A DNA stretch of 57,222 nucleotides from an uncultured bacterium (GTDB lineage Bacteria > Patescibacteriota > Patescibacteriia > UBA9570 > XYC2-FULL-38-9): assembly GCA_937996685.1 (NCBI GenBank), contig CALKUP010000014.1, forward strand, positions 1 through 57,222, read 5' to 3'. Position 1 is the first letter of the stretch; each line of letters starts with the position of its first letter. Under the pieces are notes generated by a model that did no database searches, was not told the DNA's origin, and saw only the letters and a list, made by a program, of their open reading frames with translations. The position numbers were made by a program, and so were the translations under genes. Below, piece after piece: positions 9,876-49,079 of the stretch.

Positions 9876-9882
9876 TCAATTA

Positions 9883-10299: not shown

Positions 10300-10326
10300 A
10301 CAAAACCTTTTATTGTTCTTCCCTAT

Positions 10327-10785: not shown

Positions 10786-10803
10786 ACTCTCATTATTATG
10801 TAT

Positions 10804-11169: not shown

Positions 11170-11217
11170 ACATATACTCTACTACAATTGAGATCTTCTT
11201 GGTATTGTTTTACCTAT

Positions 11218-11448
11218 TTATTTCTTTTTCTTTAGAGGCGCATTCACCCAGCCTTTTTGCTTAAACACGAGCCATACTGCCATTGAATGACCATGTCCGA
11301 GATCAAACTTATCTTTGAGAAACTTCACCAGCACACCTGCTTTCATATCAGGATCAAGCAACCCTTGCTTTTTCATCAACTTCATAAAATCTTCCGGTGT
11401 TTTTCCGGTTTTGGCTTTGATGGTGTCGAGGTAGGCCTGGAATGACAT
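11218..11448 (-). CDS. DUF4287 domain protein
   Basis: MSFQAYLDTIKAKTGKTPEDF ... LGHGHSMAV is typical of DUF4287. I prefer the ATG at 11448; the ORF track extends to 11508. Confidence 0.65.
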   Translation of the reverse strand: MSFQAYLDTIKAKTGKTPEDFMKLMKKQGLLDPDMKAGVLVKFLKDKFDLGHGHSMAVWLVFKQKGWVNAPLKKKK

Positions 11449-11524
11449 AGGATGTATAATTAAGACTTTCTTCATTACAGTATAAAATAAAAAAGACTCA
11501 TTGAACATGAATCTTTTTTTGATG

Positions 11525-21187: not shown

Positions 21188-22153
21188 CTAATTTGGATCT
21201 GCGTATCCGTCGCCGTCTTCATTTTCTAATTTAGAAAAATGTTGAGGATCTTTAAATTTACCTCCCCAACCCCAACCATTCTTTTTCCAAATTTCCAAAA
21301 AAGCAGGTGGCATGTCTGTTTTGATAGACGATCCTTCTGTATACGGATTTGTTGCTGGATTAATATCAATCGCCACTCCATACGAATGATTTGACGGTCT
21401 TCCTGTGTCATACCAATTACCATTTGCATCTTTCTTTTGTACATTTCGACAATTAAATCCCTCTAATTCACTCCCTCGACTATTATTTAATCCAGCATTA
21501 ATTGGATAAAATTTATCTCCACCCAATCGATTCCATTCCGCATCAACAGCTTTGAGGCTTTTTACAAGATCTTTATGAATCTTTGTTGTCATTCCAAAAA
21601 CACTCACAGTCACAATGTAATCAGGATCTGGCGCTCCAACCTGACACGGTGGAATTGCAATTTTTTCTCCTGAAATTGGCCGGACTAAATACTTAGTACC
21701 GGATTCACACACAGTATCGCCAGGCGCGCATGAGCCAGAATCATCATGATGCGCAGGCGCTGCTGCAATTGGAATCGCAGGATTTGTGGATTGAATTAAT
21801 GCCGGGTTAATAAAGTTCAAAATCATGTATGAACTAAATGCTAACACGATACCAATAATTGCATGCAAGATACCATCCTTGGCTTTTCCAATAATGTCTG
21901 AATTTCCCGCAGCGGCTGCCCATTGAAAACCATGAAACATAATCATCACTGCAGCGATGATGCCGATACTTGAAACAATAAAAATATACAGTCGTGCAAT
22001 ATAATCGGCGAGACCAAGGACAGCATTCGTTTCTCCAAATGGCACTTCAAGTCCAACGTTCACAAGCGGCGCATCTGCAGCAAATGCAATGTGTGGAGCA
22101 AAGAGCATCGCACATCCGATGAGAAACAATTGAATACTGATTATTCTTTTCAT
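21188..22153 (-). CDS. Fusion protein: signal peptide + VirB2/TrbC-type T4SS-pilin-like two-TM module + C-terminal M15 (VanY-like) zinc peptidase
   Basis: Signal peptide ending AFA|AD. Two hydrophobic helices flank a short polar loop (LYIFIVSSIGIIAAVMIMFHGFQW-AAAAGNSDIIGKAKDG-ILHAIIGIVLAFSSYMILNFI). C-terminal SxHxxGxAxD motif (SNHSYGVAID) and a later DPQHF. Confidence 0.7.
   Translation of the reverse strand: MKRIISIQLFLIGCAMLFAPHIAFAADAPLVNVGLEVPFGETNAVLGLADYIARLYIFIVSSIGIIAAVMIMFHGFQWAAAAGNSDIIGKAKDGILHAIIGIVLAFSSYMILNFINPALIQSTNPAIPIAAAPAHHDDSGSCAPGDTVCESGTKYLVRPISGEKIAIPPCQVGAPDPDYIVTVSVFGMTTKIHKDLVKSLKAVDAEWNRLGGDKFYPINAGLNNSRGSELEGFNCRNVQKKDANGNWYDTGRPSNHSYGVAIDINPATNPYTEGSSIKTDMPPAFLEIWKKNGWGWGGKFKDPQHFSKLENEDGDGYADPN
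21771..22073. repeat. 303-bp dispersed direct repeat copy A (pilin-module coding segment)
   Basis: Aligns without gaps to 23148-23450 with about 21 mismatches by manual alignment (about 93% identity). Confidence 0.85.
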
Positions 22154-22157
22154 AAGA

Positions 22158-22607
22158 TTACGGACAATAATGGAAACTCAATTCTTTCCCACTATACTCC
22201 TCATTCACGCTAAATGGAACCCCCATACTTACCTTTAACGCACAAGCATCAGTGGCTGTAATATTAAGAATCTTGAGAAAATCCTGCTCTGCAATTGTTC
22301 GAGCACTTTCAACATTGGGATCGAGCAAGGTAATGATAAAACCATCATCTTTTGGATAATAACTCATCTCATAAGAGCTTGTACGCGCAAATCCCACGCC
22401 ATTTTCTGGATATGTCACAAGAGCACGTCCGTAAATATTTGTCATGAGAATATTTTTTTTGTCTGCTGTAGTGACAGAGAGTTGATTTTTTACAATTGTT
22501 GGCTTGTATTCAATGGATTTCTGATAAAAAAAGAAATACCATACTATTGCAATAGAAAGAAGGATTGTGATAATACTACCTGCGATGATAACTGCTGTTT
22601 TATTCAT
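22158..22607 (-). CDS. Bitopic hypothetical protein (N-terminal TM segment, extracytoplasmic domain with 2 Cys)
   Basis: 149-aa ORF lying 4 nt upstream of the next gene in the operon. N-terminal hydrophobic segment VIIAGSIITILLSIAIVWYFFF. Confidence 0.55.
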   Translation of the reverse strand: MNKTAVIIAGSIITILLSIAIVWYFFFYQKSIEYKPTIVKNQLSVTTADKKNILMTNIYGRALVTYPENGVGFARTSSYEMSYYPKDDGFIITLLDPNVESARTIAEQDFLKILNITATDACALKVSMGVPFSVNEEYSGKELSFHYCP

Positions 22608-22630
22608 ATAAGTATATCAATCTCTTTTTA

Positions 22631-23533
22631 TTAAGGCGTATAATTACATTTTTTATTCGTACTCCATGGTTTCCAATGAGCACCATTACTTGAGATACGG
22701 CAAGCTAATTCAACATTCTTGGTTGCTTCAATAAATTGCGCCTTACATGATTCATAGAGTGGTACATTTTTCACACTACAATCATAATGCTTTTTTCCAT
22801 TTGGGTTTGCGGGATCAGCCACAAGTCCTGGATTTCCATGCCCGTAATTATAGACCTTGTCTTTTTCGCAGCCAGAAATCAAGTATCCATTCGCAATCAT
22901 GTTCACTTGAAAAAGCCCTACCGAAAAGGCTCGCCCATCCGTGCAGACATCCGTCTGACTTTCAATACTTTGTCCACGAGTTTCTGCATTACAGATACCA
23001 GAAGCTTCATTCACATGCGTACCAAAGCAGCCTTTTGAAACAGTTAATAATGTTGCTGGCTCACATGTACCACTGCTCGGAGCCTCACAAACCCCGCCAC
23101 TTGCAGCCGCAACTCCGTTCACTGTTGCGACAGGTGCTCCTGCCTTTGGAATCGCAGGATTTGTGGATTGGATTAAGTTTGGGTTGATAAAGTTTAAAAT
23201 CATGTATGAACTAAACGCTAACACGATACCAATAATTGCATGCAAGATACCATCCTTGGCTTTCCCGATAATATCTGAATTTCCCGCAGCAGCAGCCCAT
23301 TGAAAGCCATGGAACATAATCATCACTGCAGCGATGATGCCGATACTAGAAACAATAAAAATATACAGCCGTGCAATGTAATCAGCGAGACCGAGGACAG
23401 CATTCGTTTCTCCAAATGGCACTTCAAGCCCAACGTTCACAAGCGGCGCATTTTCTGCAAAGGCAATATCTGGCAAGAGCAATGCTATGCAAAACCCAAT
23501 AATAAGGAATGAAGTGGCTGAAAAAAATTTCAT
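22631..23533 (-). CDS. Fusion protein: signal peptide + the same T4SS-pilin-like module + C-terminal lysozyme-like/lytic transglycosylase (SLT/GH23-like) Cys-rich domain
   Basis: The N-terminal 101-aa module differs at 1 residue from the one in 21188-22153. The C-terminus has an ES ... SVGLFQVN arrangement typical of SLT-type muramidases, plus about 11 Cys. Confidence 0.65.
   Translation of the reverse strand: MKFFSATSFLIIGFCIALLLPDIAFAENAPLVNVGLEVPFGETNAVLGLADYIARLYIFIVSSIGIIAAVMIMFHGFQWAAAAGNSDIIGKAKDGILHAIIGIVLAFSSYMILNFINPNLIQSTNPAIPKAGAPVATVNGVAAASGGVCEAPSSGTCEPATLLTVSKGCFGTHVNEASGICNAETRGQSIESQTDVCTDGRAFSVGLFQVNMIANGYLISGCEKDKVYNYGHGNPGLVADPANPNGKKHYDCSVKNVPLYESCKAQFIEATKNVELACRISSNGAHWKPWSTNKKCNYTP
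23148..23450. repeat. 303-bp dispersed direct repeat copy B (pilin-module coding segment)
   Basis: Partner of 21771-22073. The mismatches are almost all synonymous. Confidence 0.85.
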
Positions 23534-23534
23534 G

Positions 23535-24320
23535 TTACTTCCCTAACTCTTCTTCAATCACAGCCTTTAGTGTTTCGTACGATTGCGCGCCACTGAGAAA
23601 GCGACCATTGACATAATAACTCGGCGCTTCTGTCAGCCCTAATGACTGACCAACAAAATAACTTTGCACAACTAATCGCTGAGTTTTTGCACCAGACACA
23701 CAACTACTAAACACATTTGGATCCAAACCAGCCTCTTCTGCGATAGTAGACCATGGTTGTGACGCGAATAATGATTGCTGGGTTAACAACGCATCATGAT
23801 ATTCCCAGAATTTGCCTTGATCTTGTGCGCAACGTGCTGCAATGGCTGCTGTTTGCGCATATTGATGCACTTGTGGCAACGGAAAGTCTTTCCACACATG
23901 TTGTACTGTTCCACTGTATTCATCAACAATTTTTTGCATCGTATCTTTCATTGCAGCACAATTTTCGCATTGAAAATCACCAAACTCGATGATTGTCACT
24001 TTTGGATTTGTCGCTCCCCGTTTTGGATCAGACACCAACGCAACTGGAGCCCCTTTCGAAACCTCAGCCTCGCTCACCTTTGGCACAACTGAAACAAGTG
24101 GGTCAGAACTCGGGGAAACGGTCGCTGTCGGAGTCACAACCAATGATGAATTCACTGGATTATTCGCAAAAAATAATGAAGCAATCGCAAGCACAACAAG
24201 CAATACAATTGCCCCAAGTGTCAATCCAATAAAATACAATCGGGCAGTGTGCTTTGATGGTGTCATTACGATTTTTTCAGAAGATGCTGGCTGGACTGTA
24301 AGCGGTTGATTGGATTCCAT
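23535..24320 (-). CDS. Membrane-anchored DsbA-like thioredoxin-fold thiol:disulfide oxidoreductase
   Basis: N-terminal TM segment, and a CxxC active site in FGDFQCENCA followed by a DsbA-like helical insert. Lies 1 nt from the next gene. Confidence 0.8.
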   Translation of the reverse strand: MESNQPLTVQPASSEKIVMTPSKHTARLYFIGLTLGAIVLLVVLAIASLFFANNPVNSSLVVTPTATVSPSSDPLVSVVPKVSEAEVSKGAPVALVSDPKRGATNPKVTIIEFGDFQCENCAAMKDTMQKIVDEYSGTVQHVWKDFPLPQVHQYAQTAAIAARCAQDQGKFWEYHDALLTQQSLFASQPWSTIAEEAGLDPNVFSSCVSGAKTQRLVVQSYFVGQSLGLTEAPSYYVNGRFLSGAQSYETLKAVIEEELGK

Positions 24321-24325
24321 AAAAA

Positions 24326-25651
24326 TTATTGTAATTTGATTTTGACTAACTGACCACTTGTCGTATCTTGAAAAATCAATTGATTATCTTTTGATACCGT
24401 CATTGAATTTGCATTAACCGCATACACCGCCTCACCCTTAGCATTTACTGGTGTTGCAATTTTTGACTTAATGCCTGTTTTGACATCAATTTTATAAATA
24501 TCATCTGCCACGCCATTTAAAATTCCAGGCTCTAAACCGTATCCATATTTTTGATTGCTCGGCACACCACAATACACCGTTGAGGAATCTTTTGTGAATG
24601 CACATTTATTCGCGAATGTATTCACACCAAGCTCTCGTCGGTTATTTCCAATATTTTCACCATCACTATCAACAATAGTCAGGCTTGGTTTATATTCTGT
24701 CGCAGTTGAATAGACGCTATACAACATTCGCGCGCCATCTTTAGAATACTGACTTTGAAAACCACGACCATCAACAACAGTCCCTTTAAAGTTTTCACGA
24801 TTCAATCCAATAAAACCAATTTCTTGTCGATTCACATCGATGAAGGTTGAAAACGTCGCTGCTACTTTCCCCGTTGGAGACCAGCCCACTTGCACACGAT
24901 CCTGGTTTTCTCCCAACGCCTCTAACGTCTTTGCTTTCGAACCATCCGGGCTACTCATTGCAAGCACACGACGCTCTGGATCTGAATGCATATATTTAAA
25001 TGCGATCTCAGCTCCATCGTTTGAAAAATCAAACTGCTCAAATTCTTTTGGCAATGTGACCTGCTTATTATTACTCAAATTGTAATAGACATTTGCTCCA
25101 TCGGGAAATTCTAAGATCACTTCATTATTCGTTTTTGACCATGTCACCTTTTCAACATTTGCAAACTCACCCGTTCCAATTTGCTGAATCACACCTGCGG
25201 CATCAACGCTGAAAAACTTCCCTGTTTTTGGATCATAATATCTCGATCCATCAACTTGTGAACTTGTACTCGGAGCTGGATCTTGAATTTTTGTATCTGG
25301 AGTGAGAGGTGTTGCTATTGTTTGACCACCACGCGCAACTGCATCAACTCCTGGAAGATTTCCAGTGTTTGTATTTCCATTCCCATTTGTATTCCCGTTA
25401 GAAATATTTGTATTTTTTAAAATATCATTAATATTCGGCAAACCAACCGTGCTATTTGTATTTTGGCTTGCCTGATTACTCGATGACGGCGATCGAAAAA
25501 ATACCCAATAAATCAAAAATAACAACACAATTAAGCCTGCAACAAAACCCCCTATCAGTAGGGCTTGTTTCATGCGGGGTGAAAGTGTGAAATTCATATC
25601 ATGATTAGTGTACCATTTTTTTTGGAAAAATAGAATCTTTAATAGGTACAT
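24326..25651 (-). CDS. Bitopic protein with a TolB-like (PD40/WD40-like) beta-propeller
   Basis: TM segment near the N-terminus, an N/G/T-rich linker, and repeated SPDG/SKDG/SNDG blade motifs. Starts possible at 25651 (13-nt overlap with the upstream gene) or 25597. Confidence 0.65.
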   Translation of the reverse strand: MYLLKILFFQKKWYTNHDMNFTLSPRMKQALLIGGFVAGLIVLLFLIYWVFFRSPSSSNQASQNTNSTVGLPNINDILKNTNISNGNTNGNGNTNTGNLPGVDAVARGGQTIATPLTPDTKIQDPAPSTSSQVDGSRYYDPKTGKFFSVDAAGVIQQIGTGEFANVEKVTWSKTNNEVILEFPDGANVYYNLSNNKQVTLPKEFEQFDFSNDGAEIAFKYMHSDPERRVLAMSSPDGSKAKTLEALGENQDRVQVGWSPTGKVAATFSTFIDVNRQEIGFIGLNRENFKGTVVDGRGFQSQYSKDGARMLYSVYSTATEYKPSLTIVDSDGENIGNNRRELGVNTFANKCAFTKDSSTVYCGVPSNQKYGYGLEPGILNGVADDIYKIDVKTGIKSKIATPVNAKGEAVYAVNANSMTVSKDNQLIFQDTTSGQLVKIKLQ

Positions 25652-26970
25652 CCAGACGCCGAGTACAAGGCATATGCACCACCGACCGCACCAAGTATCG
25701 GGTTAATTATAGCAGCTAATGTAGACACCAGACCAATAGCAGCACTACCTCCTAAACACCCTAGACTCATTAACAAAAACAGAATTCCAAGCGTAAAAAC
25801 AAATACCACTAAAAGCATAAAAATGATAATCATTATTATCCATTTAATGATGGGTGTTTTTGACAAAAGATAGCCTAAAATATACCCAGCAACTGTACCC
25901 CCTGGACCAACAGCTGAACCTGCTGCTGCGAGACCCTCCTCAGCGGCTATTGTTTCTGCTCCTTCTAATGCCGCTGTCTCTCCTGCGCTTACCGCAGCAC
26001 TGCCGGAAACTTCAGCAAGCGCCTTTCCTCCTTTATTCGTGACTAACTTGGCTGCTGCCTTTTCTTTTTGCAAATCACCCGCAACCGCGGATTCATCTTC
26101 TGGTGCAACTGATTGACTCGAACCCGCAGCATCTTCTGACTGCTCTGCATTTTCATTTGAGTCAGATCCCGCATCATCACTTCCGTCTTCAGTGCCCTGT
26201 TCGTTCTCTTTTTCTTCTTGATCTTCATCACCATCTTCAGATTCGTCATCTGCTTCTTCATCATCGTTTTCCTCATCGTTCTTTTTTTCGTCACCGCTCT
26301 CATCTTCAGCTTTTTTTTCTTCATCAACAGCATCACCTGCAGATTCACTTGGCGCTTCTTGCGACAATGGCGCAGGCGCATTTGATTGCGGTGCGGATGT
26401 TGCAGCCGGCGCTTGTGAGCCGGATTCAGGTTGTGTTGTCTTACCCTCAGGCGCATTTCCCGCCTCTTGTTGCGGAGCCGCATCTGAAGCATTATCAGCA
26501 GAAGACTTCGGTGAACTCGCTGGTTGACTTTCAGTTGGCATCGGCGCTGTGCTTGGTGCTTCTTGCGCGCTCGGCTGAGCACTCCCCGGACTTTCAGCAC
26601 GAGGCTCAGACCCTGGCGTCGTCGAAGATGGCTCTGGTTGAGAAATGGGACGCGGCGCGGCTGATCGAGTAGGAGCTCCTGCTTCACCTGCCTGACTCAA
26701 GAGCGCTGCCGCCTGACGCGCTTTTGCAATCTGTCGAGCCTTTTGCAACGCTGCCGCCATTGCGGCTTCCGTCGCAGCTCCTGCAACTTGAGCAGCAGCC
26801 GTTTGACTTGCTCGAGCAATTTCCCCTCCAACATCTTGGAGTCCTTCCTGAATATTCTCCTCAATCGCTTTTGGTACAGCAACATTTAAGACCTCTTGTT
26901 CCAAAGGTTTTTGAATATCTGTATTATCACCTGCCTGTGATAATTCTGCTTCTACATCCGAATCTGCCAT
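25639..26970 (-). CDS. Highly acidic, low-complexity (A/E/D/S/P/Q-rich) protein with C-terminal multi-TM anchor
   Basis: 443-aa ORF in the operon. About 330 aa are predicted disordered, with runs such as DEENDDEEADDESEDGDEDQEEKENEQ, followed by about 3 hydrophobic segments at the C-terminus. Confidence 0.55.
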   Translation of the reverse strand: MADSDVEAELSQAGDNTDIQKPLEQEVLNVAVPKAIEENIQEGLQDVGGEIARASQTAAAQVAGAATEAAMAAALQKARQIAKARQAAALLSQAGEAGAPTRSAAPRPISQPEPSSTTPGSEPRAESPGSAQPSAQEAPSTAPMPTESQPASSPKSSADNASDAAPQQEAGNAPEGKTTQPESGSQAPAATSAPQSNAPAPLSQEAPSESAGDAVDEEKKAEDESGDEKKNDEENDDEEADDESEDGDEDQEEKENEQGTEDGSDDAGSDSNENAEQSEDAAGSSQSVAPEDESAVAGDLQKEKAAAKLVTNKGGKALAEVSGSAAVSAGETAALEGAETIAAEEGLAAAGSAVGPGGTVAGYILGYLLSKTPIIKWIIMIIIFMLLVVFVFTLGILFLLMSLGCLGGSAAIGLVSTLAAIINPILGAVGGAYALYSASGCTY

Positions 26971-26993
26971 GAAATAGTACTAACGAATAAATG

Positions 26994-27611
26994 TTATTGC
27001 CACGCAATTTGATCAACTTTCCATGAACCATCACTATAGACCATATTCACTAATACATCTTGGGTGAATGTTTTTTGTTCGGTGTCACCTTTTGTTTCTG
27101 AACGTTGCGTGGAAACACGCACTTGCGCTGCTTTTTGTTCAGTGTATTTATCCGCCTTTAAAGACAATACCGTTGTTGTGATGCCATAAAATGGATCTGT
27201 CTCTTTTTTATTAGCTGTTGCATTTTTTGCAATATACGCATCACTTTCACGTTGAAAACCACTTGTCATAAATGGCTGTACGTTTGTAATATTTTCAAAA
27301 TTATTACGATTACTATAGGTTCCGTATCGCTCAATAAACACGCGCGCTACCCGCAACGCTGCGGCCGCATCATTTGTTGATAGCTTTGTTGTATTTGTAT
27401 TTGCAACAGGCGCAGCAGTATTTGTATTAGTTGTTGGCGCTGCTGTAGTGACTGGCACACCTTGATTCACCACAATCGCTGTATTCGTATTTGTTGTTAC
27501 AGTCGGTGCTGGTGCTGTATTACGAAAAAAGAAATACCACACGAGTCCACCAATCACAGTAACTGCGAGGACTCCTCCAACGATAGATAGAATAATAGTT
27601 CGTCGTGTCAT
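26994..27611 (-). CDS. Bitopic protein, VirB8/TcpC-like (NTF2-like) candidate
   Basis: ATG at 27611. N-terminal TM segment, a T/N-rich linker, and a domain of about 125 aa ending DGSWKVDQIAWQ, which resembles an NTF2-like fold. Lies immediately downstream of VirB4. Confidence 0.45.
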   Translation of the reverse strand: MTRRTIILSIVGGVLAVTVIGGLVWYFFFRNTAPAPTVTTNTNTAIVVNQGVPVTTAAPTTNTNTAAPVANTNTTKLSTNDAAAALRVARVFIERYGTYSNRNNFENITNVQPFMTSGFQRESDAYIAKNATANKKETDPFYGITTTVLSLKADKYTEQKAAQVRVSTQRSETKGDTEQKTFTQDVLVNMVYSDGSWKVDQIAWQ

Positions 27612-27632
27612 AAGAATCAATCACTAATAATA

Positions 27633-29675
27633 TTAAAGGATAGGGTTATTTTGCTGATTTTGCAATTGCGCTATTTGCTCATCTGAAGCCGCAGCGCTTT
27701 GTTCTGCACTTTCCATTGCGAGCAACTGACGTGGATCTGAAGTAATAATCTTATCTTCAATCGGAGACGCGACCACTTGCATCGCAACGTGTTTTTGCCC
27801 TGCAAAGAAAATGCCTTGCCCGACACTTCCTTCAAGGAGTAAATATTTTTCACTATCTGTGAGTAAAAATATTTTTTGGATGTTATCAATAGCAGCCGGA
27901 GACTGTTTCAGCAACATTTGCATTGCTGAGTTGGTCACAATCGCCGCGCCATATGGTGAGCGCAAAAAGTCATTCACATCTTGCGTAATCGTTGTGACAC
28001 CAAGATAGTATTTACGGCATCGTTTGACTAATGCATAAATAAATTTCGCTGAATCTTCGTTTTGCATTAACCACCAGGCTTCATCAATCACCAAAATACG
28101 TTTCTTTAATTCAGATCGCACTGTGTTCCAGATATAGTTCACAATCATGTAAATCGCAATCGGTCGCAACTCATCTTCTAAATCACGGACAGAAAAAACC
28201 GTTAATTGATTTTTTGTATCAATATTTGTTGGTGAATTCAGCAAACCAGCAAAGGTTCCTTCTGTGTATTTTTTCAAACGGATCACCATGTTCGTTGTTC
28301 CGTCAAAACCTTCCAAAATATCAATAAAGTCTTGCATAATCGGCGCCTCAACTTTTGATAAATCAGCGTCAGGTGTAATATCTTTTTTCGCGTAGGTTTC
28401 AATTAATGCACGATCCAAAATCGAATCTTCTGCCGCAGAGACTTCTCCAAGCATGACACGAAGCAAGCCTTTGATTGTAATCACCGCAGACCGAATAATG
28501 TCAGCCGGGCGATCGGCTCCACCAACAGGTCGCGGTAAATCAAACGGATTAATTTTCACATCAGAATTCAACGAGATATTCACAAATGAACCACCAACTG
28601 AATCAGACAAATGCTTGTACTCATTTTCTGGGTCGATCACCATCACATCCGTGCCCATCATGAGCGAACGCAAGATTTCGAGTTTGACCGTATAACTTTT
28701 TCCAGCACCAGACGTCGCAAACACGACGGCATTTGCATTTTGCAATGAAAAGCGATCAAAAATAATCAAGCTGCCATTATGCCGATTCACGGCATACATA
28801 ATTCCGCTGTCAGAAGTCAGGTCAGATGAAATAAACGGAAATGACGACGCAACTGGCGAGCTATTCATATTGAAGTAAATCGACAACTCATCAAGCCCAA
28901 GCGGCATTGTTGAATGAAAGCCTTGTTCTGCTTGGTAAAAACCACGTTTTGCGAGCACGAGTCGACTGCCGAATAATGTATCCAATTCATCAATTCGGTC
29001 ATTCAGTTCTTTTTCCGAATCAGCATAGACTGACACATATAATGCATATTGAAAAAACTTTTCTGTTCCTTGGGTGAGTGAGTCACGCAACTCTTCGATA
29101 TCTCGCAAGGCTGTTTCACGAATTGGGTCACGCGGCGCTCCTTTGTCTCGATCAGACACGATCGTTGCTTCCAACTCACCAACCTTTTTCTTTAATTGGC
29201 GCAAAATAATATCCGATTTTACTGGATAAAAGAACATACTGATATCAAGCTCCTTGTTCATCATGATGATTTGCGAAAACCATCCAACACTGACATAGCG
29301 CGGATATGACACCACAAACATTGTACTGACCAATTTTCCTCCAAGATCAACAAATCGCGCCTCGACATTCATCGCAGCTGGAGCGATTAAATCAAGAACG
29401 GTTGTAATTCCTTTACGATACACTTGTGCTGCCTCAATAATTTCAGCAGTTTCATTTTGTTTCTTTTTTCTCGCGGGCGGAAGATCACTAACCACATCAT
29501 CAGACACTGTCACCTTTTCAGATAAGCCTTGCAAGAAACCACTGTCATTTTGCAACATTGCTGTATCGCCTGTTTCTGGTTTTGGCACTTCTAACTCCTC
29601 AGCGTCAACGACAATATTCTTCGTCGTGTCTGCGAATTGCTCCGGTTGTGGTTTTTTCTTTAAAAAATCAAACAT
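27633..29675 (-). CDS. VirB4/TraC/PrgJ-type T4SS ATPase
   Basis: Walker A in VVFATSGAGKSYT and Walker B in RILVIDEAWWLM. The N-terminal domain pattern (VVSYPRYVSVGWFSQII) is typical of Gram-positive VirB4 homologues. Confidence 0.85.
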   Translation of the reverse strand: MFDFLKKKPQPEQFADTTKNIVVDAEELEVPKPETGDTAMLQNDSGFLQGLSEKVTVSDDVVSDLPPARKKKQNETAEIIEAAQVYRKGITTVLDLIAPAAMNVEARFVDLGGKLVSTMFVVSYPRYVSVGWFSQIIMMNKELDISMFFYPVKSDIILRQLKKKVGELEATIVSDRDKGAPRDPIRETALRDIEELRDSLTQGTEKFFQYALYVSVYADSEKELNDRIDELDTLFGSRLVLAKRGFYQAEQGFHSTMPLGLDELSIYFNMNSSPVASSFPFISSDLTSDSGIMYAVNRHNGSLIIFDRFSLQNANAVVFATSGAGKSYTVKLEILRSLMMGTDVMVIDPENEYKHLSDSVGGSFVNISLNSDVKINPFDLPRPVGGADRPADIIRSAVITIKGLLRVMLGEVSAAEDSILDRALIETYAKKDITPDADLSKVEAPIMQDFIDILEGFDGTTNMVIRLKKYTEGTFAGLLNSPTNIDTKNQLTVFSVRDLEDELRPIAIYMIVNYIWNTVRSELKKRILVIDEAWWLMQNEDSAKFIYALVKRCRKYYLGVTTITQDVNDFLRSPYGAAIVTNSAMQMLLKQSPAAIDNIQKIFLLTDSEKYLLLEGSVGQGIFFAGQKHVAMQVVASPIEDKIITSDPRQLLAMESAEQSAAASDEQIAQLQNQQNNPIL

Positions 29676-29690
29676 ATATATTCACTTCCG

Positions 29691-30401
29691 TTACTTAGCG
29701 TCCCAATCAATGTTCATTTGATCAGTGTCTGGCAATCCACCACTTGTCACTGAATGTGGGTTATACGTATTATAGTACAACTCAATTAATGACTGTGTAT
29801 CTAATACAGTACTTTGCAGACCAATACTTGATAAACCGCCTACAACCTGGGAAACACGACGATCGAGCTCAAGTGAATATTTTTCAAATGATTTTTGTGA
29901 CAGTGTAATACTTGAAGACGGATTAAACACCTCGCCAAAACGATTCCAAAATGATTTCTTTCCCTTTTGGCTTGGAGAATATGGCACGACGACATAAAAC
30001 TTTTTTTCCATAATCTTCGCATCATTGACGAGCGCTTGAATAAAAAGCTGATAACTTTCTGTTTGTTCGCGCAGTAATTCGTTTGTTTGATCGTTTTTTA
30101 ATTGCTCAATTTTTTTCAAATATTGTTCAATATTTAACGGGCGAGATTGGATCACAATTTGTAATTCAAAGTCTAATGTATTTAAAAACGACACATATCC
30201 TTGAATAATCCCTTGTTGCTCGTCTTGTGATTTCAACGCAAAATTCAAACTTCCAACCAATAATACACGACGCAATGTTCCATCTTTCATCATCACAATG
30301 CCATCACGAATTTCACGAAACGGAATATATCGCTGAGTCGGCGGGGTTTTTGGATTCGTGCGTTTGACTGCACGTTTTTTTGGTTCGGTATTTTTCGCCA
30401 T
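29691..30401 (-). CDS. Hypothetical protein resembling a stand-alone VirB4/TraC N-terminal domain
   Basis: The stretch YIPFREIRDGIVMMKDGTLRRVLLVGSLNFALKSQDEQQGIIQGYVSFLNTL resembles the N-terminal substrate/membrane-proximal domain of conjugative VirB4 ATPases. No P-loop. Confidence 0.45.
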   Translation of the reverse strand: MAKNTEPKKRAVKRTNPKTPPTQRYIPFREIRDGIVMMKDGTLRRVLLVGSLNFALKSQDEQQGIIQGYVSFLNTLDFELQIVIQSRPLNIEQYLKKIEQLKNDQTNELLREQTESYQLFIQALVNDAKIMEKKFYVVVPYSPSQKGKKSFWNRFGEVFNPSSSITLSQKSFEKYSLELDRRVSQVVGGLSSIGLQSTVLDTQSLIELYYNTYNPHSVTSGGLPDTDQMNIDWDAK

Positions 30402-30406
30402 ACAAT

Positions 30407-30856
30407 TTAATTTTTTGTTTCAGTCGTCTCAACAGTTTCACCACGATACACTCCTCCAGTATCAACGAGAAGTGACATTTCTGCAAGCCGTGATGCAGTT
30501 GCTGGTGCTTTTGGGGCTGGCGCTTTTGATTGCATCTCATCGATTTTCACTTCTTTTTCTCGAGATATTTCACGCTTCCACACGCGCATTCCCGGCTTTC
30601 GAAATGTTTGAAACAAATTCAACAACACATAATGCATTGATTGTCCGTTGATTTTAATAAACGCTAATGCACCACCAAGTCCAAATGTAATCGCAATAAG
30701 TGGCAAAAAAAGATATGGTGATTGGAAGATTGTAAAAAAGACATAGCACAAACCAAATGTCACCAGCATAATCACAAATTGCCGTCCTGAAATTGGACCA
30801 ATGATTTTGGTCTCAACCTCAATAAATTGTGGGACAACAAATTGATTATTACGCAT
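30407..30856 (-). CDS. PrgI family (VirB3-like) small membrane protein
   Basis: N-terminus VPQFIEVETKIIGPISGRQFVIML followed by two TM segments, as in PrgI/VirB3-like proteins. Position is two genes upstream of VirB4, with the 29691-30401 gene in between. Confidence 0.7.
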   Translation of the reverse strand: MRNNQFVVPQFIEVETKIIGPISGRQFVIMLVTFGLCYVFFTIFQSPYLFLPLIAITFGLGGALAFIKINGQSMHYVLLNLFQTFRKPGMRVWKREISREKEVKIDEMQSKAPAPKAPATASRLAEMSLLVDTGGVYRGETVETTETKN

Positions 30857-30858
30857 AC

Positions 30859-33141
30859 TTAAAATCGAAGGGATCTATTTAATGCTGCGACTGCTTCAAA
30901 TTCTGCGAGCGATAACACCTCTTCACGGCGTTGTTGTGCTTGCTCAATATATTGATTGACTGGCATGCCCTGCGAGAGACTACTGTTACCAATTGACACA
31001 TACAGCTGATGCACCGGACTTGTTTGCCATGCACGAATCGCTTCGGCTTTTTTTGCAATGGACTCTTGGGCTTGTAAATCAATTTTTTGACGAATGAAGG
31101 TGGTGGCTTTTTCTGGATTCACACCAAATGAACGCAGCTCTGTAAGACTAAATTGCTGCAACTCTTCCACCGGCCCGATAGTACGTTGTCGCGCGCTGGC
31201 AATACCAGATTGCTGCACTGGACGCATGCTGTCCATTCGACGAATTGGAGAATCCGTTAATGGATCGACAGATTTTTGTCGCATTTGCGCTACATCAAGA
31301 TTTGCAAAAATATCTTCAACTGGCACACTTGTCGATTGTTGCGGGACCGCAGGCACAGCCGCCGGGACTGGAACTTCTGTTGTAAACATATTCTCTCCTG
31401 CATCCTGCTCTTGTTGTACCGTTGATGCTACTTGGCGTTTTTTTGTCTCTTCAAATAAATCTTGACGTTGCATTAATTCTTGGACTTGTGCAAATGTCGG
31501 CGTCGGCTTTTGAACCGATTGCGTTTTTCCAGTCGCTCGCAACACAGGCACATCTTCTGCGTGCACAAAACGCTCCGCTGTATTCAAACAACTACTTGCA
31601 ATGTCAGCTGTCATATTCACACCACCGGACTCAATTGGAGTAACCAGTGTTTGCATCACTTCTTCACGTGTTCGATCCCCTTTTGCAAAGGACGCGATTA
31701 AACTCAAGAATCGATTTTCAGCGTCAACACTTTCAAGCAACAACGCGTGTTCAGCCAGTACTTCTTGTGCCAGCGTTTCATAATCAATGCCTTCTTTTGG
31801 CTGCGGTTGCATTTTTGGAGCTACAACAGGCACCGGTGACTCAATTACAGAAGTCACTGGCTTTGGAGACGTAATTGGTTGTTGTGGCACCACAGGTATT
31901 GGAGCAGGCGCTGCCGTTGGGATTGGCGGCAGATCTGGCATTACTGTTGATTCAGCTGGTTGCATTGGCACAACCGGTTGAGCCGGCTTAGTAACTGACA
32001 ATGGAGCGGCGGCAAGAGACGGTGATACAGTAACAGGAGTTTGCGGTTTCACAACAGGCTTTATCGGACTCGGCTTTGACACTTCTTGTTTCACAGGCAA
32101 TTCTACAACCGACTCATCAAACATATCAGGCACAACTTTTTGCGGCGCTTTCGGCGCTGGAGTTGCAACCGGCATTTCAACACGCGGCGTGGATGCCGCA
32201 ACTGGAGTCGCATCAACGGCAACACTCTCTACAGCAGGAGTTGTGTTACGCGCAATTTCTCGACGCAATTCCTCACTACGAGACAACTGTTCTTCGAGAA
32301 TCGGTGTCATTGAAATTTCCGCTTCTGCAAGTTGTTTATCAAATTCCTGCACACGCTTTTGAATATCTCGCAACGCTTCTTCTTTTTCTTCTGGGGTCAT
32401 TTTTGCAACAATATCTGATTCAATTCCGGTGTCGATTTCTTTTCCGTGATCAATATATTTAATATGACCACTTTCAATATCATGATAAATAACCGTATCT
32501 TCATTCCCTGCCGGAGTAAGTGACGACAAGCCCATTGCATTGTAAAATCGAAATAACCCTTCTAATTTTTCACGCTCATCACTAGAAAGATTTGCAACAT
32601 TTGGAGAGGTGTTGAGATATTGCGTGAACACCAATTGATCATTCGGATTTTTCCCATCTGCAAATAATTCAAAATCATGGATCCAGTTTTGGACGGTTCC
32701 GAATGAACGAACACCATTAATTGTAATTTGTTTTTTTGAAAGCCTATACACAGATGTGCTAATTGCATCGCGAATATCTTTTTTTAACGCATCTCTATCT
32801 GCAAGATCAATAAAAGAAGCTAGCATTTGATTGATATTTTTCAGCAACGTATCTGCTGGGTACTCAAAAAAGTATTCGAAGTATTCACGAAAGAGCTTCC
32901 GAACAATCATTGGCACCTGCCATTGCAATAAAAACCATTCTAACCGAGCAAGAGCGGTATTATATTTTTTCGTCGCTGATGTGCCATAATATTGAATATA
33001 TTCACTATTATTTTTTATATATTCTGAAAGCTCGTAACGAAATTCATTCGCAAGTTCACTATGATTATTTCCAGCATCAATAAAACCAGCGATTCTTGCT
33101 TCGACTTCTTCAATTGATTCTAGCACCTTCTTCTCTATCAT
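30859..33141 (-). CDS. 760-aa hypothetical protein with a central Pro/Val/Ala/Gln-rich linker, no signal peptide or TM segment
   Basis: Long ORF in the operon, 2 nt from the next gene. A proline-rich segment of about 150 aa (PVATPAPKAPQKVVP ... PIPVVPQQPITSPKP) separates two globular regions. Confidence 0.55.
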   Translation of the reverse strand: MIEKKVLESIEEVEARIAGFIDAGNNHSELANEFRYELSEYIKNNSEYIQYYGTSATKKYNTALARLEWFLLQWQVPMIVRKLFREYFEYFFEYPADTLLKNINQMLASFIDLADRDALKKDIRDAISTSVYRLSKKQITINGVRSFGTVQNWIHDFELFADGKNPNDQLVFTQYLNTSPNVANLSSDEREKLEGLFRFYNAMGLSSLTPAGNEDTVIYHDIESGHIKYIDHGKEIDTGIESDIVAKMTPEEKEEALRDIQKRVQEFDKQLAEAEISMTPILEEQLSRSEELRREIARNTTPAVESVAVDATPVAASTPRVEMPVATPAPKAPQKVVPDMFDESVVELPVKQEVSKPSPIKPVVKPQTPVTVSPSLAAAPLSVTKPAQPVVPMQPAESTVMPDLPPIPTAAPAPIPVVPQQPITSPKPVTSVIESPVPVVAPKMQPQPKEGIDYETLAQEVLAEHALLLESVDAENRFLSLIASFAKGDRTREEVMQTLVTPIESGGVNMTADIASSCLNTAERFVHAEDVPVLRATGKTQSVQKPTPTFAQVQELMQRQDLFEETKKRQVASTVQQEQDAGENMFTTEVPVPAAVPAVPQQSTSVPVEDIFANLDVAQMRQKSVDPLTDSPIRRMDSMRPVQQSGIASARQRTIGPVEELQQFSLTELRSFGVNPEKATTFIRQKIDLQAQESIAKKAEAIRAWQTSPVHQLYVSIGNSSLSQGMPVNQYIEQAQQRREEVLSLAEFEAVAALNRSLRF

Positions 33142-33165
33142 AATCCCTTTGTTGAATAGCTGATT

Positions 33166-36100
33166 TTATACATAACCTTGCTCGTCTTTTTCACCCAGCT
33201 CTACACTATCATCTCCTGCTACAGCCTCAGCTGTTTTTTTAGCTGTTGCAGCCGCAGTACGAGTAATCAGTTTTTTGTTGTATGGAGCAAATTTTTCCAA
33301 AAAGTCTTGCGTGAAACCCGTTCCATCTGGAGCTTTGTGGTTCAAAAACAATGTTGTTGGAGTAACAGGAACGCTTGGAAGACCTGCCGCACTCGTTATT
33401 GCATCAGCTGCTTTTTGCCGCTCTTTATCCCTTTCTTGCCTTATTTGATCAATAGCAATTTCACGCGCAAAAACCTCTCGAGTTGCCGGGTCCATTTTTT
33501 TAAGGTCTAAATCATTTTGACTACGAATGTAATTATCAAGAACACCTTTATTGACGTCTGTAACATTACCGTCCATATCTCTTGAAAACGGCATGTTCCA
33601 ATCTTTTCCTGCTAACGCAAGCGCATTCTTAGGACTAGACAGCATTCCCTGCAGTATTCTAATCATCTCAGGACTATTCATTCGATATCCATTTTGGTTA
33701 AAATCAAATACCCCCATTGCGCCACCACGATCATTGCCTTTTTCAAGATTTGCCAACACTGACATTTGACGATACGCTTCTTGTTGAGAGAAACCACCAT
33801 TAGAAGAAAACCAAGAAGCAAGCAAGCGCCAAAGGTCACTACTAGTATCATAGACCATTCCGACCTTATTCGCTGCAATCGCTGCCTTTAAAGCAGCTGG
33901 ATCATTTTTTAATTCGTCTGAAATTTGTGTGTATTCTTTTTTGCCGTCTACAGTAGTTGTAAATTTTGGCGCGCCCGTTGTTTCATCAAGTTCATACATT
34001 TTTGTTCCTAAATCAGCTCCAAGCAACGCTGTTTGCTTACGAAAATCTGGATTCGACTCTGCGGCTTGTTGTAAAAACTTTGGAATCGCCCACCCACCAG
34101 CTCCCAAGGATACCAATTTTCTTAAAATAGCTGATGTAACAAAACCATTACCGGAGATTAATGCATTAGTAAATGACTCTTGCAATTGCGGAACCTCTAA
34201 ACCATCTAAACCTTTCGAAGCCTCTGAAATTCGTTGATCACTCAGCGCCGCAGCTCCAATAGCTCTATAACCTCGAGTTCGCAACACTTCCCGCTCATAT
34301 GCATCTTTTGTCTGAGTAGCGGTTTTCTTGCGGCCTTCCGCATCAGCAACAGCTTTTGTCCTCTCAGCTCTCTGACTTAAGAGGTCAGTGAAAGTCTCTA
34401 AAGAGTCAACTCCAGCGGCCTTTGCTGCATTTTTTTTCTGCTCTTCTAATTGAGCTTTTTTCGCCAATCTAGCCGCCTTGTCTACCTGTCCTGGCTTTGC
34501 AAATCCAACACCTAAAGCTCCTAATAGAGCATCGCTTACATCACCAGTCGCGATAGTTTTGGCTCCTGCATTTATTAAATCTAAAAGTTTTTTTGACTCC
34601 GCAGGATCAGTTGCTGGATCTGACGCCCGATCTTCTACTATTTCTCGAATAGCCTTATCTTGAATATCTATTGAACCACTAGCCTTCAGTCTCGCAATTA
34701 TTTGATCTGCCGTTTCTGGCTCTGAAGGGTCAATATTTCCAATTGCTTCATCTGCATCTGCTATTATTTTTTGTGCATTTTCCAATAAGGCTAATTTTTC
34801 AGGGCTAATTCCTTGGTCTGCATCAAATTGTTCTACTAATCTTTTCTGATGTGCAAGTTCATCATTCGCCCTTTCAATCGCTTTCTTGTTCTCTTCCATT
34901 TGTTTATTTTCCCTGGATTCTTGACCAATAAAAGGAAGAGCCTTAAACATTTTAAGGCCTAATACTTCATTCAAGAGAATATTTTTCAACGTCACCCCTT
35001 CCACATATTGAGTTCCCCCTTCTGTTGTCGCTCCAAACATTGCACCTATAGCACGAGTTGCTGCATTACGACGACCTGTTGTCATCACACCCGCTAATTC
35101 TTGCGCTCCTTGCGCAGAGGCGTTTGCGCGTGTTTTTGCATTTGCATCTAAAGCATTTTTTACATTTGTTGCTGAACCTTTAACGTCCATTAAATTACCC
35201 ACCATATCAAGGCCGGTACCAAAAAAACGCAGAGCTCCAGTACCAAGTGAATTATTTACATACTTTCCTTCCTCATCTGTTTCAGAAGCACCAAAAGAAC
35301 CTCGTATGCCAGAACCAAGACTTGAAACCATTTGTGAACCACGAATGACCCCTGAATTGACCAAAGAACCGGCCGCAGCGGATGCTTTTCCGGTATATTC
35401 TCCAATTTCACCAGACATTCCTGATGTAAATTTCAATGCAGCTGACAACATGATAAAGCCAATAAGGTAATTTGCCAAAATACTTGGATTTGTCGATCCG
35501 TACTGGGAACTTGACTGAGAATTCAACTGAGTCAATGCTGTTGTTGTTGCGTTACTTGCTTTAGTTAATGATTGAACATTTGTTAATCCTTGAGTCAAAG
35601 GATTCGCAATTGCACCACCAAGACCACCTGCGCTAGTCCCGACAGCAGCTCCATTCATCATTGTTAGTGTCAGCCATAAAAAAAATGTCATGAATGGACC
35701 CAGGATAATGTATCGTCCCCACATTTCCCACCACTGAGTGGAATATCGTTTTGTAACATCTAAAATACGTGTGATATACGCAAGCGGAGACAGGACAATT
35801 AATACCCATAATAATACAATCCGAGCAATCAACATCACAACAAAAACCGTTAAAATCACAAATGCTGAAAACTGCAAAAATGCCGCGATGATAACAGCTC
35901 CAGTCGCCTCATAAGAAAGGGAAGCAGCAGTACCGGTAACACCAGCAGAGTCTGTAAAACCACCACTACTAAAAAAATTTCCTAGCGCGGGTGCGCCTAA
36001 ACCTGCAAGAACGCCTCCTCCCCATGAACCGCCAATGCTCCCACCAAATGTCGCCATTGCCACATTTGCCGCATCAGTAAAAAAACCACAAATGGTTTTA

Positions 36101-49069: not shown

Positions 49070-49079
49070 AAAATGCAAA

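Follow-up and report, generated by a model that had tools for sequence, protein, structure and literature searches.

Two neighbouring genes of the window (the whole stretch of 57,222 nucleotides analysed here, from an uncultured bacterium of the ultra-small Patescibacteria) encode proteins that share an almost identical pilin-like membrane module and carry, behind it, two different putative wall hydrolase domains (hereafter, heads). The questions that this locus raises are how the two modules have come to be so alike, and what such proteins would do for the type IV secretion system (T4SS) encoded beside them. In the single species of Patescibacteria tested, growth as an epibiont was found to require the T4SS, and the role of this system has been called completely unknown (PMC11665869); its VirB2-like pilins have been described as the feature that was least expected (PMC12857230).

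A pilin-like module with two different heads

Gene A (21188..22153, minus strand) is an ORF of 321 aa that consists, from the N- to the C-terminus, of a signal peptide (aa 1-25, with the cleavage site IAFA/A), a VirB2-like T4SS_pilin module, a Pro/Ala linker and an M15 head (Peptidase_M15_4) with 4 Cys. Gene B (22631..23533, minus strand, 300 aa) has a signal peptide (aa 1-26), the same module, a linker and an SLT_3 head with 10 Cys. The T4SS_pilin domain (PF18895) was detected by Pfam with 30.7 bits in A and 30.0 bits in B, the gathering threshold being 26.6, and this family has been treated as VirB2-like pilins in Patescibacteria (PMC12102498, PMC12857230). The signal peptide ends in AFA and is followed by hydrophobic segments at around 48-77 and 93-117 with a short polar loop between them, in such a way that the cleavable signal and the two helices of TrbC/VirB2 pilins are found, and both termini of the module are predicted to lie outside. 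The AF2 model of B agrees with this, showing a helical hairpin (49-81 and 86-116), a linker modelled as disordered (residues 121-140, pLDDT 31-42) and a well-modelled head (150-300, pLDDT 85-93). An earlier reading of the locus, made from the sequence only, had proposed a signal peptide, a two-helix pilin-type module and then a hydrolase head, with both heads outside the membrane; Pfam, hydropathy and the AF2 model of B support this architecture and this predicted topology.

Any relationship of the module to classical pilins would be distant. Neither A nor B matched the TrbC/VirB2 family (PF04956) in Pfam at E<=0.1, and 10 of 122 relatives did so at E<1e-3. When the module family was aligned by hhalign with six annotated plasmid VirB2/TrbC proteins, the similarity was weak (probability 8.6%, E 0.004), and this weak alignment covered 57 columns, in register across the helix-loop-helix. 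A profile search of the family against PDB sequences found no pilin, and Foldseek comparison of the B model with the PDB gave only generic helical hairpins (E>3), short hairpins being hard for this method.

The peptidase core of A (21233..21406, minus strand; aa 250-307) was delimited by the Pfam coordinates and by alignment with Ply500, and contains the metal-ligand motifs SxHxxGxAxD and DxxH. The head scored 57.7 bits as Peptidase_M15_4 (threshold 25), and its PDB profile matches included Ply500 (2VO9, E 4e-10) and LysB4 (6AKV, E 6e-9). Residues S254, H256, D263 and R236 are invariant across 7 relatives, DPQH305F is conserved, and the His/Asp/His zinc ligands H256, D263 and H305 align with the corresponding motifs of Ply500. 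These phage M15C L-Ala-D-Glu endopeptidases are the nearest solved structures by sequence profile and share with the A head the motifs SNH-x-YG-x-A-x-D and D-x-x-HF. The phage enzymes are soluble and bind the wall through a C-terminal domain, whereas the anchor of A is the pilin module, and its catalytic core is preceded by an additional Cys-containing segment of ~100 aa. For A, a structure predicted from 7 sequences was of poor quality (pLDDT 52) and was left out of the fold search. From these motifs, we infer that the A head would cut the peptide stem.

The head of B (22658..23041, minus strand; aa 165-292, from Pfam coordinates and conservation) was assigned by Pfam to SLT_3 (PF18896, "lysozyme like domain") with 32.5 bits over a threshold of 27. 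It contains the motifs C-x-A-E184-T-x-G and S-x-G-L-F-Q-x-N, and in 14 relatives the context of the glutamate is C-x-A-E-[ST]-x-G, followed by G-L-F-Q-x-N, in such a way that E184, G206, Q209 and 7 of the Cys of B are invariant. Similarity to a lysozyme-like fold or to canonical SLT domains was not found by Foldseek or hhalign, which lowers confidence in that fold without excluding it: the search of the B model against PDB and BFVD gave no match to the head below E=0.7, although a whole-chain search may miss a small divergent domain, a PDB sequence profile search was empty, and SLT_3 heads compared with pilin-linked SLT (PF01464) heads showed no relationship (probability 0.7%). Since neither Foldseek nor the SLT profile gave a match, the evidence for the putative glycosidase activity consists of the name of the Pfam family and a single conserved Glu motif, and the B head would probably cut the glycan strand. 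The M15/VanY-type zinc peptidase and the Cys-rich lysozyme/SLT-like domain of the sequence-only reading were in this way both recovered, with Pfam scores above threshold and with their expected residues conserved.

Origin of the near-identity of the modules

The block shared by A (residues 28-128) and B (29-129) is identical at 100 of 101 aa, as previously claimed, the sole difference being A118 in A versus N119 in B (NPALI versus NPNLI). In the corresponding DNA (21770-22072 and 23147-23449, one base away from the positions first proposed) we counted exactly 21 mismatches in 303 nt, nearly all synonymous as had been stated: 18 codons have synonymous third-position changes and one codon is GCA in A and AAC in B. 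By the Nei-Gojobori method dS is ~0.32-0.34 (0.316 over the 303 nt), dN 0.011 and dN/dS ~0.03. Random single-base changes in the module DNA would be synonymous in 24% of cases, and therefore at least 18 synonymous among 19 changed codons has P ~9e-11. These data support the proposed signature of purifying selection, acting since the copies were last identical, and a dN/dS of 0.03 is ordinary for the cluster, with values of 0.04-0.08 in neighbouring genes.

The similarity of the DNA extends beyond the protein block. An independent repeat search found a direct repeat (21754-22053 and 23131-23430, 92% identical, spacing 1377), and base-by-base alignment, together with this search and the dN/dS analysis, delimited a homogenised tract of ~342 nt, at 21755..22096 in A and 23132..23473 in B, both on the minus strand. 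Starting at the signal-peptide C-region, it spans both helices and ends where the linker begins. Sliding identity was 0.8-1.0 inside the tract and 0.17-0.37, i.e., the random level, outside it, the first 18 codons of the signal peptide included.

The two copies could have been an artefact of assembly or a very recent duplication. Both were ruled out by the 7% of bases at which the repeats differ, by the different heads, and by the recurrence of the arrangement in independent assemblies. The independently assembled contig of the nearest relative (locus L001, GCA_964492735.1) has DsbA, pilin-SLT_3, the 149-aa gene and pilin-M15 in the same order as the window, so the A/B pair is not an assembly artefact.

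Comparison with L001 dates the two genes and the tract differently. Orthologous modules of the window and L001 are separated by dS 1.5-2 and dN ~0.2, and the window A and B modules are far closer to each other, forming one clade with 100% bootstrap. Fifteen residues are common to both window modules and present in none of the relatives, and no residue specific to the B lineage was found. The B heads of the window and L001 are 85% identical; a recent horizontal transfer between the two lineages was rejected as the cause of this identity, dS being saturated (1.8). Within L001, A and B share a perfectly identical tract of 112 nt, a stretch where the sister lineage has 16 differences (P ~2e-19 given the flanking identity). 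In five genomes the paralogous modules are 99, 81, 82, 70 and 72% identical, and the between-genome mean is 49%.

Paralogues closer than orthologues, sharp edges and an identical tract in a relative, which together characterise concerted evolution, are thus all present. On these alignments A and B are old paralogues that predate the window/L001 split, and the near-identity of their modules is due to gene conversion, as argued by the sharp edges, by paralogues being closer than orthologues and by the 112-nt tract of L001. The comparisons demonstrate that non-allelic gene conversion overwrote the ~342-nt tract in the window lineage, at a depth of dS ~0.3, and that purifying selection has since let through 18 synonymous codon changes and a single amino-acid replacement. 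The sequence-only reading had instead attributed the identity to selection on the protein, and had excluded recent duplication and gene conversion. Selection since the last identity stands; the exclusion of conversion does not, given the 342-nt edges, the 15 shared residues and the tract in L001. That one old duplication followed by selection alone would explain the locus is extremely improbable: the nearly exclusive synonymous differences would agree with it, and selection for similarity exists, as shown by paralogous modules that are still 70-82% identical in L019-L021 despite dS 1-2, but it does not account for signal-peptide codons and a linker at random identity right beside the module, for paralogues far closer than orthologues when both genes predate the split, or for 112 nt of perfect identity in L001.

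The T4SS cluster and the module subfamily

A monoderm-like T4SS cluster of the Patescibacteria type ends with A and B, which come right behind a DsbA-like gene. The remaining T4SS-type cluster (24326..36672), co-oriented with A and B on the minus strand, includes genes for a VirB4-like ATPase (27633-29675; Pfam P-loop_TraG/AAA_10), a TraC-like protein (29691-30401), a PrgI/VirB3-like protein (30407-30856; Pfam PrgI), large membrane or unknown proteins (30859-33141 and 33166-36672) and conserved unknowns (24326-25651, 25639-26970 and 26994-27620). This gene order recurs in three related loci (L001, L002 and L007). As expected for TrbC/VirB2 pilins, the modules are therefore encoded with VirB4 and VirB3-type genes on one strand; no coupling protein or relaxase was found by Pfam among the scanned ORFs of the window. 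An HMM scan of all ORFs in the 57 kb found no module besides those of A and B, and no stand-alone pilin gene was detected in the window, five small ORFs at 9456-11508 included.

The DsbA-like gene (23535..24320, minus strand) lies 1 nt upstream of B and encodes a membrane-anchored thioredoxin (Pfam Thioredoxin_4 2e-25, DSBA 9e-17). Such a gene is immediately upstream of the head-bearing pilin in seven loci (L001-L005, L019 and L021) and within two genes of it in L007, and its product is a probable oxidative-folding partner of the Cys-rich heads. In L001-L005 and L007 the head-bearing pilin occupies one slot, near DsbA and at the end of the cluster where RadA lies, and the head in this conserved slot varies by locus, being M15_4, SLT_3, SLT (PF01464) or unknown. 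Between B and A, a gene of 149 aa (22158..22607, minus strand) encodes an N-terminal TM anchor and a domain of ~115 aa, predicted outside, with two invariant Cys. Its homologue is directly downstream of the pilin-SLT_3 gene in all 8 loci examined, in differing contexts. The protein had no Pfam or PDB sequence match, and NCBIfam gave no useful match for it, for A or for B. Pilin-SLT_3 genes need not be linked to a T4SS, because in L010 and L011 they and the 149-aa gene stand apart from any visible T4SS gene.

In order to place the two proteins in a wider context, the module was searched in databases. A word-indexed homologue search with the module alone returned a single fragment, the lineage being thinly sampled, and genome and metagenome contig scans with B gave L001 plus two distant loci and no additional close A/B pairs. 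The exhaustive HMMER search, by contrast, found 17,717 cluster representatives matching the module at E<=1e-3. Among 122 close single-module relatives scanned with Pfam, T4SS_pilin was present in 118, and ~30% had recognisable wall hydrolase heads (SLT 12, SLT_3 7, VanY 8, Peptidase_M15 8, M15_4 6, SLT_2 1 and NlpC/P60 1). A C-terminal extension of at least 100 aa was found in 125 of 130 single-module relatives (median 12 Cys, the number being even in 90%), and proteins with 2-9 modules also occur. The fusion is thus no peculiarity of this genome but the norm in its module subfamily. No paper describing pilin-hydrolase fusions was found in the literature searched, which agrees with the earlier claim that the fusion is an undescribed T4SS feature; that claim was too wide for the pairing of a glycan and a peptide cleaver, a known theme (PrgK, TraG and, at a Saccharibacteria T4SS locus, SEML1_0006/0007), and only the fusion to a pilin-like module is new. 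These data indicate that a large subfamily of such "pilins" are carriers of predicted extracellular, disulfide-rich heads, a sizeable fraction of them recognisable wall hydrolases in a fixed cluster slot beside a DsbA-like gene, and that short pilins and enzyme fusions are lumped together when "pilin genes" are counted by PF18895.

Function and comparison with known systems

We regard it as reasonably likely that A and B are wall hydrolases dedicated to the Patescibacteria-type T4SS, with modules evolving in concert. The module would insert in the membrane with both ends outside and target its head to the site of T4SS assembly, or into the pilin pool or filament, and the co-operonic DsbA-like oxidoreductase would fold the Cys-rich heads. 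With head A cutting the peptide stem and head B probably the glycan strand, the two would together loosen the peptidoglycan of the cell itself, and possibly of the host, at the place where the secretion apparatus needs an opening, as VirB1, PrgK or TraG do in other T4SSs. The membrane protein of 149 aa would most likely be a dedicated regulator or inhibitor of B. In every genome examined, paralogous modules resemble each other more than they resemble modules of other genomes, which suggests that proteins with different heads have to fit a common partner, or one another.

A different role would follow if the modules, alone or with short pilins from genes located elsewhere, polymerised into a T4SS pilus displaying the two hydrolases on its surface or at its tip, in such a way that these drill the host wall and the 149-aa protein confers immunity to the lysozyme-like head. 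The membership in a family treated as VirB2-like pilins, the predicted C-terminus outside the membrane and the likeness of the M15 head to phage lysins attacking from outside would all fit such a pilus; near-identical modules would permit co-polymerisation, one locus (L012) has an SLT_3-like-headed pilin among four short T4SS_pilin genes that form an array, and the constant pairing of the SLT_3 head with the 149-aa protein resembles effector-immunity pairs. We nevertheless consider it unlikely, because no Patescibacteria T4SS is known to form a pilus, just A and B bear modules in the window, a 20-kDa head on every subunit is sterically demanding, solved pilins gave no structural match, and A has no partner gene of immunity type. 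A broader version would make the VirB2-like modules a modular display system of Patescibacteria in general, with a filament or stalk composed of, or decorated by, subunits whose exchangeable disulfide-rich heads, a stem-peptide cutter and a glycan cutter among them, attack the host wall, and with the 149-aa protein as antidote to the lysozyme-like head. This seems to us quite unlikely; if true, it would give the essential T4SS of these bacteria a mechanism, i.e., an armed pilus that enzymatically breaches the host envelope.

Cleavage after export at the Pro/Ala linker would yield a short pilin and a free or wall-bound hydrolase, the fusion ensuring equal co-delivery. C-terminal trimming is established for P-type pilin precursors such as RP4 TrbC, and the linker is both modelled as disordered and the exact point where homology stops; but no TraF-type processing protease was seen in the cluster, the relatives have no conserved cleavage motif beyond INP-x-L, and the proteins with 2-9 modules suggest that modules work covalently linked, so that such a pro-pilin is very unlikely. 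It is scarcely probable that the proteins are housekeeping autolysins of growth or division, with the module as a mere anchor and the T4SS adjacent by chance. The DsbA-RadA slot ending the VirB4/PrgI cluster is kept in at least 6 independent loci despite the exchange of heads, and the anchor belongs to the T4SS_pilin family and is not a generic helix. These points outweigh, in our opinion, the position of the pair at the cluster edge adjoining radA, the pairs of L010 and L011 and the further wall enzymes of the genome (a Mur ligase and an M23+LysM protein), which would fit a housekeeping role.

Southlakia epibionticum has an essential six-gene array of VirB2-like pilins, SEML1_0014-0019 (Wang et al. 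2023, PMC10633639), and T4SS_pilin genes of Patescibacteria have been surveyed by Quinonero-Coronel et al. 2025 (PMC12102498), who do not mention hydrolase fusions. Anaplasma also has multiple VirB2 paralogues (PMC3556328). The window resembles the Patescibacteria loci in the T4SS_pilin family, in the monoderm-like cluster with VirB4 and PrgI and in that no relaxase or coupling protein was seen, and its two pilin genes, split by one non-pilin gene, fit the published definition of an array (PMC12102498). The described pilins, however, are short (about 100-185 aa) and stand-alone, whereas the A and B modules carry heads of 170-190 aa; and the described arrays are reported to be highly divergent (mean identity 25%, maximum 54%), whereas the A and B modules are 99% identical.

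In classical virB operons a lytic transglycosylase gene directly adjoins virB2, and lineages such as that of the window may carry a VirB1-type function joined directly to the pilin-family module. CwlT of ICEBs1 is a wall hydrolase of a Gram-positive conjugative T4SS. PrgK of pCF10 and TraG of pIP501, as cited in PMC12102498, are Gram-positive T4SS wall hydrolases that cleave glycan and peptide. All of these and VirB1 are like A and B in being encoded in a T4SS cluster, tethered to the membrane at the N-terminus and opening the wall by glycan and peptide cleavage, which for A and B is predicted. PrgK, TraG and CwlT, however, combine SLT or muramidase with CHAP or NlpC-P60 in a single chain anchored by a plain TM helix, whereas A and B are two proteins, an M15 metallopeptidase and an SLT_3 candidate glycosidase, anchored by a pilin-family hairpin; being separate, and M15 instead of CHAP, they fall outside this bifunctional class and may act alike.

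Closer to the window, SEML1_0006 (two lysozyme-like domains and a cysteine peptidase) and SEML1_0007 (a C-terminal Hedgehog/DD-peptidase fold) adjoin virB4 in S. epibionticum and were scored essential by Tn-seq (PMC10633639). By description, this Patescibacteria T4SS locus resembles that of A and B in encoding both a lysozyme-like enzyme and one with an M15 fold beside virB4, but with 643 and 1113 aa the two proteins are far larger, and no T4SS_pilin domain is recorded in them. Gene conversion between pilin paralogues is known from pilE/pilS of Neisseria, and the likeness lies in non-allelic recombination among pilin-family paralogues of one genome. Whereas the conversion of pilE/pilS leads to diversity and antigenic variation, that between A and B homogenised the shared module, with the heads remaining distinct.

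Two enzyme-like heads on a near-identical pilin module

Gene A (21188-22153, minus strand) and gene B (22631-23533, minus strand) are open reading frames of 321 and 300 aa, each combining a VirB2-like two-helix module with a different C-terminal enzyme-like domain (the head), and they are the only module-bearing ORFs in the 57-kb window. In an ungapped comparison, A28-P128 of A and A29-P129 of B formed a 101-aa block with Ala118 versus Asn119 as its sole difference, just as a sequence-only reading of this DNA had described. The corresponding DNA lies at 21770-22072 (A) and 23147-23449 (B) on the minus strand, where that reading had located it except for a shift of one base, and its estimate of about 21 nearly all synonymous mismatches was accurate: exactly 21 were counted, with a synonymous change at the third position only in 18 codons and one further codon being GCA versus AAC. 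The codon-aligned calculation proposed there gave a dS of 0.316 and a dN of 0.011 for the block (Nei-Gojobori); random base changes here would leave the amino acid unaltered in only 24% of cases, and the observed excess has a P of about 9e-11. The repeat was also recovered independently by a repeat search of the window, and the presence of two enzyme-like heads on a near-identical module is confirmed as real.

Both proteins match T4SS_pilin (PF18895) over the curated Pfam threshold, as do A with Peptidase_M15_4 and B with SLT_3. The M15-type zinc peptidase recognized earlier in A is further backed by a profile search of PDB sequences, in which its head resembled two phage L-alanyl-D-glutamate peptidases, Ply500 (2VO9, E 4e-10) and LysB4 (6AKV); the residues S-x-H256-x-x-G-x-A-x-D263 and D-x-x-H305 align with those of the phage enzymes and are kept in relatives. 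For B, described from the sequence as Cys-rich and lysozyme/SLT-like, the cysteines and the SLT_3 family held. Among 14 relatives, Glu184 is invariant within C-x-A-E-[ST]-x-G, as are seven cysteines, and a further motif is G-L-F-Q-x-N. An AF2 model of B places two hairpin-forming helices at 49-81 and 86-116, followed by a disordered linker and a head modelled with confidence (pLDDT 85-93). This head gave no significant Foldseek match in PDB or BFVD, and no similarity emerged when SLT_3 heads were compared by profile with canonical SLT heads, so that the putative glycosidase assignment is based on membership of Pfam SLT_3 together with the Glu motif. Mature A carries 4 cysteines in its head and mature B 10.

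Origin of the module near-identity

The near-identity had been attributed to selection on the protein and not to gene conversion. Purifying selection does operate, and the dN/dS of 0.03 between the A and B modules is real yet unremarkable beside that of neighbouring genes (0.04-0.08 between the related loci L001 and L003). Sharp tract edges, paralogues closer than orthologues and a second tract in L001 argue, by contrast, against the exclusion of conversion. The homogenised tract covers around 342 nt on the minus strand (21755-22096 in A, 23132-23473 in B) with an A/B identity of 0.8-1.0, and on both sides, including the first 18 signal-peptide codons and the linkers, identity drops to the random level of 0.17-0.37. 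Judged from sequence divergence, A and B are older than the divergence of the window lineage from that of L001, so in the absence of recombination their modules are expected to be at least as unlike as orthologues. Between these two loci the B heads agree at 85% of residues, with dS saturated at 1.8; for neighbours including DsbA, PrgI and the gene between B and A (149 aa), identity is 62-80% and dS exceeds 1.2. The orthologous modules (A with A, B with B) show a dS of 1.5-2 and a dN of about 0.2, versus 0.34 and 0.011 for the two window modules. The latter form a clade with 100% bootstrap and have in common 15 residues that four related modules all lack, whereas the B modules do not group on their own and no residue is common to them alone.

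In L001, the paralogues match without a single mismatch over 112 nt (9669-9780 versus 8312-8423) amid 65% identity (P about 2e-19), and over this stretch 16 positions differ in the sister lineage L003. The only pilin-M15 gene of L003 (2755-3678), compared with L001 8111-8989 and 9468-10394, has the DsbA junction and first ~27 nt of L001 B and the body of L001 A, which hints at a recombination between module repeats that removed both the B head and the 149-aa gene. For the five genomes that have a pair of head-bearing pilins, module identity within the genome was 99, 81, 82, 70 and 72%, versus a mean of 49% between genomes, and this excess persists even where paralogue dS reaches 1-2. The A and B modules display concerted evolution, and we conclude that they were homogenised by gene conversion and afterwards kept by purifying selection, with selection for mutual compatibility probably also maintaining them.

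A conserved slot with an exchangeable head

A and B close a co-oriented gene cluster, followed by radA and recG, that includes on the same strand genes for a VirB4-like ATPase (27633-29675) and a PrgI/VirB3-like protein (30407-30856), along with several for conserved but uncharacterised membrane or exported proteins. A gene for a membrane-anchored DsbA-like thioredoxin stops one base before the B start, and neither a relaxase nor a coupling protein was seen in the window cluster. This is a monoderm-like T4SS of the kind described in Patescibacteria (PMC12102498), essential in Southlakia epibionticum (PMC10633639). Just upstream, also on the minus strand, proteins of 3317 aa (39125-49078, one CBM_4_9 carbohydrate-binding match) and 1168 aa (33166-36672, no Pfam match) and a DUF6909 protein (36739-38358, E 1.5e-137) may be surface or adhesin parts of the system. 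A separate LysM plus Peptidase_M23 wall hydrolase is encoded elsewhere (53415-54854, plus strand), and therefore the genome has wall enzymes not fused to pilin modules.

An exhaustive HMMER search with the module (E<=1e-3) matched 17,717 cluster representatives. T4SS_pilin was found in 118 of the 122 best single-module matches; TrbC/VirB2 was also matched by 10 of them, and direct homology of the A/B module to that family is weakly supported. The survey of related genomes suggested earlier yielded other heads on the module, those recognized in these 122 being SLT (12), SLT_3 (7), SLT_2 (1), VanY (8), Peptidase_M15 (8), M15_4 (6) and NlpC/P60 (1). C-terminal extensions of at least 100 aa occur in 125 of 130 single-module proteins, whose extensions have medians of 211 aa and 12 Cys, with an even Cys count in 90%. 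Tandem arrays of 2-9 pilin modules were found in 29 of the 159 best relatives (P0106, P0016, P0031, P0130 and P0018 among them), up to 9 modules within 1147 aa, and no mention of such "poly-pilins" was found in the literature searched. Seven pilin-SLT_3 relatives (P0033, P0059, P0073, P0095, P0108, P0115, P0134) have an additional Cys-rich stretch (60-130 aa) separating signal peptide from module, and therefore their modules would have outside domains at both ends.

Within a thinly sampled lineage, the slot is kept and the head is interchangeable across related loci. L001 repeats the window's order (DsbA, pilin-SLT_3, 149-aa gene, pilin-M15), L002, L003 and L004 have DsbA and pilin-M15 only, L005 has a canonical SLT head (PF01464) in the same slot, L007 an unrecognised head, and L019, L020 and L021 pilin-SLT_3 plus a second head-bearing pilin. 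MAGs with a Patescibacteria label are the source of related loci, and one homologue, 40% identical, bears the name Candidatus Kerfeldbacteria. The record holding L001 and L006 (CAZBLE010000023.1, GCA_964492735.1) is titled "uncultured Gammaproteobacteria bacterium"; its T4SS cluster is of Patescibacteria type and syntenic with the window, and it is probably mis-binned or mislabelled. The pilin-M15 orthologue of L004 (P0006, 3957-4784) lacks ~28 residues running from late helix 1 through the loop into early helix 2 (MIM|GVVLAF), either as a decaying copy or through an assembly or frame problem. An array in L012 (8498-11662) has four short T4SS_pilin genes (164, 127, 136 and 125 aa) and one 277-aa pilin whose head is SLT_3-like, with its 149-family partner, and thus short and head-bearing pilins can share one array.

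The 149-aa gene (22158-22607, minus strand) encodes a TM anchor and an outside domain of ~115 aa with two invariant Cys, without Pfam or PDB match. Homologues of ~150 aa lie directly downstream of the pilin-SLT_3 gene in 8/8 loci examined, these being the window, L001 (9013-9462), L019 (4966-5433), L020 (2689-3153), L021 (5245-5658), L010 (1735-2184) and L011 (9835-10284), both with no T4SS genes in view, and L012 (9776-10351), inside the short-pilin array; none was found beside M15- or SLT-headed pilins. The protein most plausibly serves as the SLT_3 head's own partner, whether to inhibit it, give immunity against it, regulate it or act as its chaperone.

Possible function and known systems

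Beyond the observed domain composition, conserved catalytic-type residues, cluster context and DsbA linkage, we propose that the module would insert in a VirB2-like manner with both termini outside and carry the heads, oxidised by DsbA, to the T4SS. There A would cleave peptide stems and B glycan strands, jointly opening peptidoglycan for the apparatus, by analogy with VirB1, PrgK and TraG elsewhere. The wall attacked may be the cell's own or that of a host, and the modules may polymerise into a head-decorated filament, or the head may be cleaved off at the linker. The earlier interpretation of A and B is partly supported, and these fusions are relevant to an essential secretion system whose role is still unexplained.

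That reading had considered pilin-hydrolase fusions with glycan and peptide cutters undescribed. No covalent fusion of a hydrolase head to a pilin-family module was found in the searchable literature, nor the generality of head-bearing modules, the SLT_3/149-aa pairing or concerted evolution of such modules; the domain combinations are already implicit in Pfam annotations of database proteins. The pairing of glycosidase and peptidase, on the other hand, is standard in Gram-positive T4SS hydrolases (PMC12102498), and in S. epibionticum virB4 is flanked by lysozyme-like and DD-peptidase-fold proteins (PMC10633639). In classical virB operons a lytic transglycosylase gene directly adjoins virB2. 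VirB2-like pilins have been published in Patescibacteria T4SS loci, in arrays of 2-11 genes with identity of at most 54% (PMC12102498; PMC10633639; PMC12857230). Compared with T4SS wall hydrolases and with these pilins, A and B each have features of both kinds.
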